From a virus (taxonomy: Duplodnaviria; Heunggongvirae; Uroviricota; Caudoviricetes): a stretch of 14,827 nucleotides of DNA. Below are positions 6,305 to 7,892 of the stretch, piece after piece. The translations under genes were made by a program, and so were the position numbers. Every line of letters starts with the position of its first letter. Position 1 is the first letter of the stretch. The notes under the pieces were generated by a model. That model had not been told where the DNA came from. It saw only the letters and a program-made list of their open reading frames with translations, and did not search any database. The DNA lies in the IMG/VR virus record IMGVR_UViG_2534681999_000018, positions 1-14,827 of that record, one strand, 5' to 3'.

Positions 6305-7701
6305 AAAGCGCACCGAACTTAAAAAAACAGCCTTACGACAAGATGACCGAAGTCATTATTTTTGCGGGTAGTGATGCCTGGGCACATGCGAAACAGTGGC
6401 AGGAACAGGACGGGCGACTGGCTGGCGATAATGTGCCTCCCGTTGTGCTGGCTGATGATCAACTGGATGAACTGGCAGAACTGAGAATCATCGACGAGGG
6501 GCGCTATTGTGTCCGGCTGTACAAGGCAGGCCACATCAGGCCATCAAATATTAATGCCATTGCGCACAAGCTGGCGGCGGCGGGTGTAACTGATGCGAAT
6601 TATTACCCCGAAGGGATGCACAGCCATATGCGGGAGAACTGGCGCGAATACCTGGAACGGGTGCGCGGGAAAGAGCCGGCGGAAGAAAAAAACCACCAGC
6701 GAAAAACCACGCTACCGATGAGCGTTGGATCTACCGGATACGACACGCAACTGGATTACGTGGTTAAGGGGATTATTCCGGCGGTATCGCTATGCAGCAT
6801 ATACGGGGCTAGCGGGTCCTATAAATCATTCCTTGCCGGATCGTGGGCGTGCCATGTTGCCACTGGTCGCCAGTGGGGAGGCCGCAGGGTTGCACATGGT
6901 GCGGTTCTCTATGTGGTTGGTGAAGGCGGTATAGGTGTTCCGCGTCGTGTAAAAGCCTGGGAGGTTGTGCACGATGAGCAGGTGAAAAATCTGTATCTGG
7001 TAAACCGCCCCATCTTTCCGGCTGCCCCGCTTGATGTTGATGAAATGGTTATCGCTGCCCGTCAGGTGGAGCGGGAAACGGGTAAACCTGTACGCATGAT
7101 TATTCTGGATACGCTGGCGCGTTGCTTTGGTGGGAATGATGAAAATGATTCCCGTGATATGGGGGCGTTTATCCGTGGTTGTGACGAACTGAAACGACGC
7201 ACAGGGGCCACGGTGCTGGTGGTTCACCATTCCGGCAAGGATGAGACGAAAGGCGCGCGCGGTTCCAGTGCATTTCGTGCTTCGCTGGATGCTGAATACC
7301 GGATACGCAGGGAGGACGCAGGAAGCGAAGCGCTGGTTATCTCATGCACCAAAATGAAGGACGCGGAGGAACTCAAAGAAGCCGCATATGACTTACGCGT
7401 GGTGGAGCTTTTTACCGACGCTGACGGTGAATTAATCACGTCGCTGGTGGTGGTGGATGATCCGCGCCCTCCTGTTGAACTGGAGCGCATCGAGGAGGCA
7501 GGGAACAAGACGGAAAACCATACCGCGCTATGGGGGTGCATCCGTTCACGCACACAGAACGGCGACAAGTGCACGATCCCGCTGTTACGTGATGACATGA
7601 AAAAGCTGGGGTATGAAATGAAAAACTTCCGGCGCTGGCTGTACAAGCTGGAAAAAGATGGGGTTATTCGTATCGATGGGGATGATGTAGCGCCGCTATA
7701 A
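6301..7701 (+). CDS. Replicative helicase/ATPase of the RepA/AAA_25 (RecA-like, DnaB-like) type
   Basis: 466-aa ORF; Walker A-like GASGSYKS, Walker B-like RMIILDTLARCF, VLVVHHSGK motif; followed immediately by an iteron cluster. Confidence 0.85.
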   Translation: MKSAPNLKKQPYDKMTEVIIFAGSDAWAHAKQWQEQDGRLAGDNVPPVVLADDQLDELAELRIIDEGRYCVRLYKAGHIRPSNINAIAHKLAAAGVTDANYYPEGMHSHMRENWREYLERVRGKEPAEEKNHQRKTTLPMSVGSTGYDTQLDYVVKGIIPAVSLCSIYGASGSYKSFLAGSWACHVATGRQWGGRRVAHGAVLYVVGEGGIGVPRRVKAWEVVHDEQVKNLYLVNRPIFPAAPLDVDEMVIAARQVERETGKPVRMIILDTLARCFGGNDENDSRDMGAFIRGCDELKRRTGATVLVVHHSGKDETKGARGSSAFRASLDAEYRIRREDAGSEALVISCTKMKDAEELKEAAYDLRVVELFTDADGELITSLVVVDDPRPPVELERIEEAGNKTENHTALWGCIRSRTQNGDKCTIPLLRDDMKKLGYEMKNFRRWLYKLEKDGVIRIDGDDVAPL

Positions 7702-7892
7702 AAGTGAGGAGCAAAAGCGAGGGGGATAGAAAGAGGGCCAAAATTAGCCCGCTCTCCCTCACTTTTCGACCTGTATACATCCTCAAAAGTGAGGGGTAAA
7801 AAAATACTTATGAAACACACACATAGAAAAACCGAAAATCCCAACTGCGACGAAGTGAGACGCTTGAAAAAGTGAGGCGAAAAAGTGAGAGG
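7700..7892. repeat. Iteron cluster, putative replication origin: at least 6 copies of AAGTGAG(G), one inverted
   Basis: AAAGTGAGG at about 7701-7709, inverted CCTCACTTTT 7757-7766, AAAAGTGAGGGG 7785-7796, GAAGTGAGA 7852-7860, AAAAAGTGAGG 7867-7877, AAAAAGTGAGAGG 7880-7892. Confidence 0.6.

Follow-up and report, generated by a model that had tools for sequence, protein, structure and literature searches.

The window analysed here is a 14,827-base stretch of a Caudoviricetes record (IMG/VR IMGVR_UViG_2534681999_000018, positions 1 to 14,827), and its feature of interest is a cluster of short repeats, or iterons, behind the helicase gene of what sequence comparison identifies as a phage-inducible chromosomal island (PICI) of Escherichia coli. 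The array lies within the 200-bp gap between the gene for Rep (6301-7701), a 466-aa helicase that we presume to be the initiator, and an 83-codon open reading frame (orf83, 7902-8153), past which come the genes for SSB and then PerC (Table 1). With both strands searched, the window has six exact matches to AAGTGAG, all inside 7702-7889 (188 bp): those at 7702-7708, 7787-7793, 7853-7859, 7870-7876 and 7883-7889 are on the plus strand and the one at 7758-7764 is on the minus strand. The first begins one base past the helicase stop codon (TAA, 7699-7701), and no second AAGTGAG cluster was found elsewhere in the 14,827 bases. Shuffled windows contained 1.42 matches on average and reached six in 2 out of 200 shuffles; a rough scan-statistic estimate for six copies sharing one 188-bp span is 6 x (188/14827)^5, or ~2e-9. 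The repeat cluster is real and non-random. An initial annotation of this DNA had reported the six copies, one of them inverted, with their AT-rich spacers, and our motif search of the window reproduces that description and its coordinates throughout; what it overlooked are the degenerate iterons and a palindrome, TGTATACA (7772-7779), between the inverted copy and the next direct one.

Searching for AAAGTGAGG with at most one mismatch returned an extra site at 7714-7722 (AAAGCGAGG), and alignment with related origins resolves ~10 ancestral iteron positions, of which six are exact in the window, three are degenerate (7714-7722, 7843-7851 and 7893-7901) and one or two are lost. A left set (7701-7794, orientations + + - +) and a right set (7843-7901, + + + (+)) are separated by an AT-rich spacer (7797-7839), with at least two iterons on each side, mainly co-directional and one inverted. 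The spacer is 70-77% A+T and is locally the least stable duplex, in about the top 1% of the window's 30-mers. The inverted copy and the direct copy that follows it form a perfect inverted repeat, with 11-nt arms that are 100% complementary, around TGTATACA; DNA folding of this pair gives a hairpin (dG -9.6, z -4.3), which is not independent evidence because the inverted repeat itself produces it. In place of the third iteron of the left set and the second inverted copy known from other E. coli alleles, the window has unrelated sequence at 7723-7756, including a small GGGCC-N6-GGCCC-like hairpin (7735-7750) that a terminator scan of 7500-8100 returned as its one weak, minus-strand terminator-like hit. 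DnaA-box and IHF consensus searches had no match in 7650-7950, which argues against a DnaA-dependent, plasmid-type oriV. An Rfam scan of the whole window returned zero matches, as did blastn of the origin region against phage records.

Table 1. Features of the helicase gene and the repeat region behind it (window positions)
Feature	Position	Strand	Basis
Rep, 466-aa RepA/DnaB-like (RecA-fold, SF4-type) helicase, presumed initiator	6301..7701	+	AAA_25, fold, identity to EcCIRM12579
Helicase N-terminal domain, residues 1-122	6301..6666	+	62% identity to EcCICFT073 Pri-Rep N-terminus
C-terminal winged-helix domain (predicted), residues 404-466, proposed iteron reader	7510..7698	+	AF2, Foldseek
Recognition helix region K441-N442-F443...K452	7621..7656	+	residue 442 covaries with iteron base 6
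Iteron 1, AAAGTGAGG, abutting stop codon	7701..7709	+	motif search, alignment
Iteron 2, AAAGCGAGG, degenerate, 1 mismatch	7714..7722	+	mismatch search, alignment
Inverted iteron, CCTCACTTT on + strand	7757..7765	-	11-nt complementary arms; position kept in relatives
TGTATACA palindromic core, candidate first melting or assembly point	7772..7779	.	alignment; YRTATA in relatives
Iteron 5, AAAGTGAGG, partner of inverted copy	7786..7794	+	motif search, inverted-repeat pair
A-rich/AT-rich spacer, candidate DNA unwinding element	7797..7839	.	least stable 30-mer dG -32.3, 98.9th percentile of window
Degenerate iteron position, AACTGCGAC	7843..7851	+	aligns with AAGTGAGAC, AGGTGGGAC and similar in other E. 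coli alleles
Iteron 7, GAAGTGAGA	7852..7860	+	motif search, alignment
Iteron 8, AAAGTGAGG	7869..7877	+	motif search
Iteron 9, AAAGTGAGA	7882..7890	+	motif search
Degenerate iteron 10, TTGCGAGAA; TTGTGAGAA in EcCIRM12579	7893..7901	+	alignment
Exchangeable helicase-plus-origin cassette relative to EcCICFT073	6667..7973	+	blastn gap
orf83, first gene past origin	7902..8153	+	kept in EcCICFT073, absent from most array-bearing loci
SSB gene, after orf83	8150-8560		position in window

An alignment of 14 helicase homologues retrieved 80 Enterobacterales loci, to which eight loci of specific E. coli, Salmonella and Enterobacter alleles were added; conservation was counted over 86 loci. At least four RRTGNG sites of the same type lie in the 250 nt past the helicase stop in 80/86 loci (mean 7.0), against a mean of 1.15 and a maximum of 5 in 2,056 control windows from the same loci. 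The unit made of inverted iteron, YRTATA core and direct iteron recurs in 70/86 loci, at a median of 57 nt after the stop, and this composite pattern appears elsewhere only 6 times in the 1.18 Mb scanned. The first iteron starts a median of 2 nt from the stop, and the common plan reads: stop, 2-3 direct iterons, ~25-30 nt, inverted iteron/TATA core/direct iteron, AT-rich spacer, 3-5 direct iterons, with the spacer of the relatives at the position of 7797-7839. The array is far beyond chance, and its position and architecture are conserved with the helicase across Enterobacterales. Conservation in related elements, on which the origin proposal had been staked beforehand, thus holds in 80 of the 86 loci.

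Two arrays in relatives are worth describing on their own. CP018459.1 (K. pneumoniae pKp_Goe_795-4; 16,971 bp, assembled as circular and annotated as a non-mobilizable plasmid) resembles an excised capsid-forming-PICI-like element with integrase, capsid, head-tail adaptor and terminases; its origin region, at ~4870-5082 on the minus strand, follows the same helicase type (61% identity, KSF motif) and has AAGTGCGGCA iterons in the same architecture. In Xenorhabdus beddingii, two origin-like arrays stand in tandem behind one helicase gene (~4086-4300 and ~4300-4420), the first with AAGTGAGGA and the second with AAGTGGGGA iterons, each with its own inverted-iteron/TATATA unit.

The array lies directly upstream of orf83, with its last copies overlapping the ribosome-binding region of that gene, and the repeats could be read as operator or other regulatory sites for the downstream operon (orf83-ssb-perC-capsid), bound by the winged helix of the helicase (see below) or by another regulator. 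The inverted pair around a TATA-like core does resemble an operator over a -10 element, and in iteron plasmids inverted repeats of iterons often serve as autoregulatory operators. However, no sigma-70-like promoter was found in a scan of 7500-8100, which leaves a mainly transcriptional role unsupported, and the array stays behind the helicase even in loci where quite other genes, or genes in another orientation, come next, so its link is to the helicase rather than to the operon behind it. Gram-negative PICIs are, moreover, described in PMC6092414 as transcribed unidirectionally from upstream. We regard a regulatory array as an unlikely explanation, and a secondary regulatory role may exist on top of origin function.

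Positions 4882-14827 of the window match, at 100% identity, an ~11 kb island that in E. coli O157:H7 lies between roxA (ycfD) and phoQ. That island encodes an integrase, a helix-turn-helix (HTH) regulator, Icd-like proteins, DUF4222, the helicase, SSB, PerC and capsid-like, decoration-like and small-terminase-like proteins, in the gene order of EcCICFT073 and EcCIRM12579, the two PICIs that the supplement of PMC6092414 (Fillol-Salom et al. 2018) places at ycfD-phoQ. EcCIRM12579 (O55:H7) has the gene set of the window island, a helicase identical at 465/466 residues and intergenic DNA identical at 220/221 positions. Because attachment (att) site, gene set, helicase and intergenic DNA are all shared, we assign the window island, by sequence, to a catalogued PICI of the EcCIRM12579 type, sister of EcCICFT073 at the same ycfD(roxA)-phoQ site. 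The features that define PICIs are found in it: an att-site integrase, an AlpA-type HTH, unidirectional genes, a rep module and interference/packaging genes. The array sequence is 100% conserved across many O157:H7 genomes, and the sole difference from EcCIRM12579 in the 221 bp of the origin region is at 7896, where the window has C (TTGCGAGAA) and O55:H7 has T (TTGTGAGAA); this T-to-C change takes the last iteron further from consensus.

The remainder of the window bears on its provenance. Genes annotated as major capsid, head decoration and small terminase lie at 9652-12229 in an island without portal, protease or large terminase; their counterpart is the packaging/interference module of EcCICFT073, to which DNA identity is 94% over 9202-11583. 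The capsid-forming PICI EcCIEDL933, described as 15.4 kb long with portal, protease, HNH and TerL (large terminase), was considered as an identification and rejected, as the ~11 kb island has none of these genes. The roxA-phoQ PICI takes up 4882-14827 and ends in phoQ, and positions 1-4881, with lambdoid lysis, DUF1441 and TerL fragments alongside a Bro-N protein and an integrase of 412 aa, match another genomic context. No complete E. coli genome of the collection contained the whole window contiguously, so the record may be a recombinant of two islands or an assembly chimera.

Rep matches Pfam AAA_25 over residues 148-315 (E=2.4e-43) and, weakly, RSF1010 RepA (1g8y, E=0.0055), and a fold search with its full-length model has T7 gp4 and Rad51/RadA among the matches, all consistent with a RecA-fold, superfamily 4 (SF4)-type, RepA/DnaB-like helicase. 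The full-length model is poor overall (predicted local distance difference test, pLDDT, 60) and its fold search gave only RecA-fold matches and noise, so a domain-only model was needed to see the C-terminal domain for what it appears to be. In AlphaFold2 (AF2) this domain has three helices and a beta hairpin (H404-419, H426-435, H443-452, E456-459, E462-465), at a pLDDT of 83-91 within the full-length model and of 88.5 on average when modelled alone. Its top Foldseek matches are winged-helix DNA binders (IdeR/DtxR-DNA, the winged-helix domains of MCM8 and MCM4, IclR, LexA and MexR), and residues 404-466 are confidently predicted to form a winged helix. No Rep_3-type domain was found among the island proteins scanned, nor RepC or RepB domains among the neighbouring proteins.

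The N-terminal domain (residues 1-122) has no Pfam or NCBIfam match; its only hit is a partial one to a PHROG 'DNA primase', and its predicted fold alternates beta and alpha elements. The same ~122-aa domain, at 62% identity, fronts two unrelated helicases, the RecA-fold protein of the window (6301-6666) and the D5_N/SF3 Pri-Rep of EcCICFT073 (locus L082, 5742-6116), and its role may be that of an adaptor, in priming or toward factors of helper or host. Many relatives of the helicase are ~700 aa long and carry Zn-ribbon and Toprim primase domains ahead of the helicase. The Walker A motif (residues 169-176, window 6805-6828) reads G-A-S-G-S-Y-K-S, with an aromatic residue in place of the Gly of canonical GK[ST], and this form, G[AP]SGS[YF]KS, is kept in nearly all of ~80 homologues.

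Comparison with EcCICFT073 narrows down which part of the protein reads the iterons. The two islands have a common backbone, including DUF4222, orf83, SSB and the first ~122 Rep residues (62% identity); the remainder of the EcCICFT073 Rep is a D5_N/SF3 helicase unrelated to that of the window, and its intergenic repeats are GGTAGAYA. In blastn, similarity covers 5314-6666 (82%), is absent in between and resumes at 7974 (92%), so that the exchangeable unit comprises helicase core, C-terminal domain and origin. What goes along with the array in the 80 retrieved loci is the helicase core with its C-terminal ~70 residues alone; most of these loci have no DUF4222, N-terminal domain, orf83 or SSB. 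These observations bear on the possibility that the cluster is an origin whose binder is the N-terminal domain of the helicase or a small separate initiator (DUF4222, orf77, orf154 or orf83). Such a division of labour is known from RSF1010, where a separate iteron binder, RepC, works with the RepA helicase, and Rep is a distant relative of that RepA; DUF4222 is also translationally coupled to the helicase gene (ATGA overlap, 6301-6304). Yet in EcCICFT073 unrelated iterons occur together with a conserved DUF4222, N-terminal domain, orf83 and SSB, which excludes the binders put forward in the initial annotation, namely the ~140-aa N-terminal domain or a small upstream protein; most array loci do without them, and iteron type follows a winged-helix residue even where two alleles have only four differences in 71 residues (below). 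A separate binder is thus very improbable, and on these sequence comparisons the N-terminal domain and orf83 are not determinants of iteron specificity. The other half of that annotation, an origin beside an initiator helicase, stands well supported by the catalogued PICI, the published layout and the 80/86 loci.

The iteron core varies by lineage: AAGTGAGG in E. coli and Xenorhabdus, AAGTGCGGC in Kosakonia, Phytobacter, Kluyvera and a Klebsiella episome, AAGTGGGGA in Pantoea and Superficieibacter, and AAGTGGGGGA in Pectobacterium, Serratia and Morganella. Residue 442 of the helicase sits just ahead of the third helix (K441-x-F443), the recognition helix of a winged helix, and, taking the majority base per locus, it pairs with iteron base 6 as N-A in 31/32, S-C in 8/8, H-G in 12/13 and K-G in 28/29 loci. 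The protein alignment led us to predict, ahead of any look at the DNA, that E. coli alleles with His-442 would have AAGTGGGG (G-type) iterons, and this held in 4/4 cases: the KH[F/L] alleles P0052, P0091, P0007 and P0111 have AAGTGGG(G) at every aligned site. Three Asn (KN[F/M]) alleles, P0015 and P0038 among them, have AAGTGAG iterons. Among these, P0015 (KNF, AAGTGAGG) and P0007 (KHF, AAGTGGGG) are near-isogenic, with four differences in the last 71 residues, of which N442H is the one adjoining the recognition helix. The base change is concerted over ~9 aligned sites with flanks that can still be aligned, which requires a reader of changed specificity, for which the neighbouring winged helix is the most evident candidate. 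In E. coli, moreover, iteron type does not follow the two helicase-core variants seen there, which points to winged helix plus origin as the co-inherited unit. Sequence and model together make the C-terminal winged-helix domain the likely iteron binder, and one residue, 442, appears to set the variable iteron base.

Given these data, the repeat cluster is very probably the replication origin of the island. Our full reading, to which we give a probability of roughly 0.85, is that 7701-7901 is the vegetative origin of an EcCIRM12579-type PICI and that the upstream helicase is also its initiator, reading the iterons through its C-terminal winged helix. PMC6092414 places the origin of Gram-negative PICIs directly 3' of the initiator gene and describes E. 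coli PICI origins as an AT-rich region between two sets of iterons just behind rep; for EcCICFT073 it reports that rep plus ori suffice for autonomous replication and plasmid maintenance, neither being dispensable. The window has this layout, with the first iteron (7701) at the stop codon and two iteron sets flanking an AT-rich region. The Reps of Staphylococcus aureus pathogenicity islands (SaPIs) are helicases that load themselves, and a winged-helix domain at their C-terminus recognises iterons lying just behind rep around an AT-rich centre (PMC9371898). For the window cassette, the one hint of autonomous replication comes from its relative on the 16,971-bp molecule that was assembled as circular.

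By analogy with these systems we infer binding, melting, self-loading and origin firing as follows. The winged helix would read the 8-9 bp iterons (AAGTGAGG), with N442, at the N-terminal end of the recognition helix, contacting or selecting base 6. The helicase would occupy the left direct iterons, the head-to-head pair around TGTATACA and the right direct iterons, the last about one helical turn apart. Occupancy on both sides of the AT-rich spacer could then melt the DNA, and the RecA-fold hexameric helicase would load itself, its hexamers assembling on the single strands as in SaPI Reps.

Several points weigh against this reading. The winged helix and the iterons are physically adjacent, and linkage alone would give some covariation; the lineages in the covariation counts are not independent samples, either. 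One Salmonella locus (L091, 2901-3120) has Asn at 442 (KNF) with mixed AAGTGAG- and AAGTGGG-type sites, and may be a recombinant or an origin of relaxed specificity. The Foldseek matches of the C-terminal domain, at probabilities of 0.95-0.99, have E-values of 0.03 or weaker, a weakness expected for 71 residues. A recognisable primase was not found in the island, though the ~700-aa relatives have Zn-ribbon and Toprim. The rep+ori test published in PMC6092414 used the EcCICFT073 Pri-Rep, which is unrelated to the window cassette, and the iteron sets to either side of the spacer are largely co-directional, whereas SaPIs are described with sets in opposite orientation. Finally, among the E. coli alleles none has an array as eroded as that of the window, where 3-4 of the ~10 positions have degenerated or gone, so that origin activity could be reduced.

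That erosion, together with the further T-to-C change relative to O55:H7 and a left third of the window that comes from another context and suggests rearrangement, could also indicate that the array is a decayed, non-functional origin remnant in a domesticated island, or else a packaging (cos/pac) or other cis site. Against decay, the helicase reading frame is intact and 99.8% identical to that of EcCIRM12579, the array is unchanged across many O157:H7 genomes, and at least two exact iterons are kept on each side of the spacer; a packaging site would not be expected to covary with the DNA-binding domain of a helicase. We consider either alternative highly improbable and retain the active origin read by the winged helix.

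If so, the PICI replication module in E. coli O157:H7 and O55:H7 now has an identified cis-acting origin and a probable determinant of its specificity, and the earlier guess on the protein part that reads the repeats is corrected. The natural allele series, KNF/AAGTGAGG against KHF/AAGTGGGG at a distance of four residues, would offer a handle on origin specificity and on the incompatibility of co-resident satellites. PICIs also seem to swap cassettes of helicase plus origin, even across helicase superfamilies, while the N-terminal domain in front stays the same. We tentatively go one step further, in a proposal that may well be wrong: the cassette could represent an undescribed class of satellite initiator, a RecA-fold SF4 helicase that loads itself via a C-terminal winged helix, whose specificity is reprogrammed by about one residue (442: N/H/S/K to A/G/C/G) and which plugs in behind a shared 122-aa N-terminal adaptor that also fronts the SF3 Pri-Rep. 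The island was already catalogued and its origin layout is as published for PICIs, so the established picture of PICI replication is unchanged; the winged-helix assignment, the residue-base link, the conserved inverted-pair/TATA core and the cassette exchange are incremental additions to it.

The closest known systems are the E. coli PICI origins of PMC6092414, whose description there agrees with the window in island family, ycfD(roxA)-phoQ site and the arrangement 3' of rep, an AT-rich region with an iteron set on each side. The EcCICFT073 cassette tested there combines a D5_N/SF3 Pri-Rep with GGTAGAYA iterons, whereas that of the window combines a RecA-fold RepA-like helicase with AAGTGAGG iterons. 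The SaPI Rep/ori (Ubeda et al.; Qiao et al. 2022, PMC9371898) resembles our proposal in that the initiator is a helicase with a C-terminal winged helix and iterons follow right after rep; the AT-rich region between iteron groups and the difference in iteron specificity between islands are further likenesses. The SaPI-type use of a C-terminal winged helix as iteron reader has its counterpart in the predicted fold and the covariation of residue 442. SaPI Reps are SF3 or SF6 (AAA+) helicases, whereas the window helicase is RecA-fold and SF4-like, outside both; SaPI iterons are 5-6 nt long in flanking sets of opposite orientation, and those of the window are 8-9 nt, mostly co-directional, with one inverted pair around TGTATACA. 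In contrast to an iteron plasmid oriV, no separate Rep_3/RepA-type initiator was found among the island proteins scanned, and no DnaA box or IHF consensus in 7650-7950. The alpha protein of satellite phage P4 joins a primase and an SF3 helicase to a C-terminal origin-binding domain that recognises octamer iterons. P4, like the proposed system, is an enterobacterial satellite with helicase and C-terminal origin-binding domain in one polypeptide; its iteron is TGTTCACC and it needs crr as a second cis region, whereas the window has a different iteron, a RecA-fold helicase without primase domain and no second cluster. In RSF1010 a separate RepC binds 20-bp iterons; of the IncQ set (RepA helicase, RepC, RepB' primase, ssiA/ssiB) the window shares only a distant RepA-like core, with no RepC or RepB domains found among the neighbouring proteins. 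T7 gp4 and RSF1010 RepA have a helicase core (AAA_25) homologous to that of Rep, and the Zn-ribbon, Toprim, helicase arrangement of T7 gp4 is that of the ~700-aa relatives, from which the window protein would have lost the primase half. Both are without an origin-reading winged helix, whereas the window protein is predicted to carry one, together with an unrelated 122-aa N-terminal domain.

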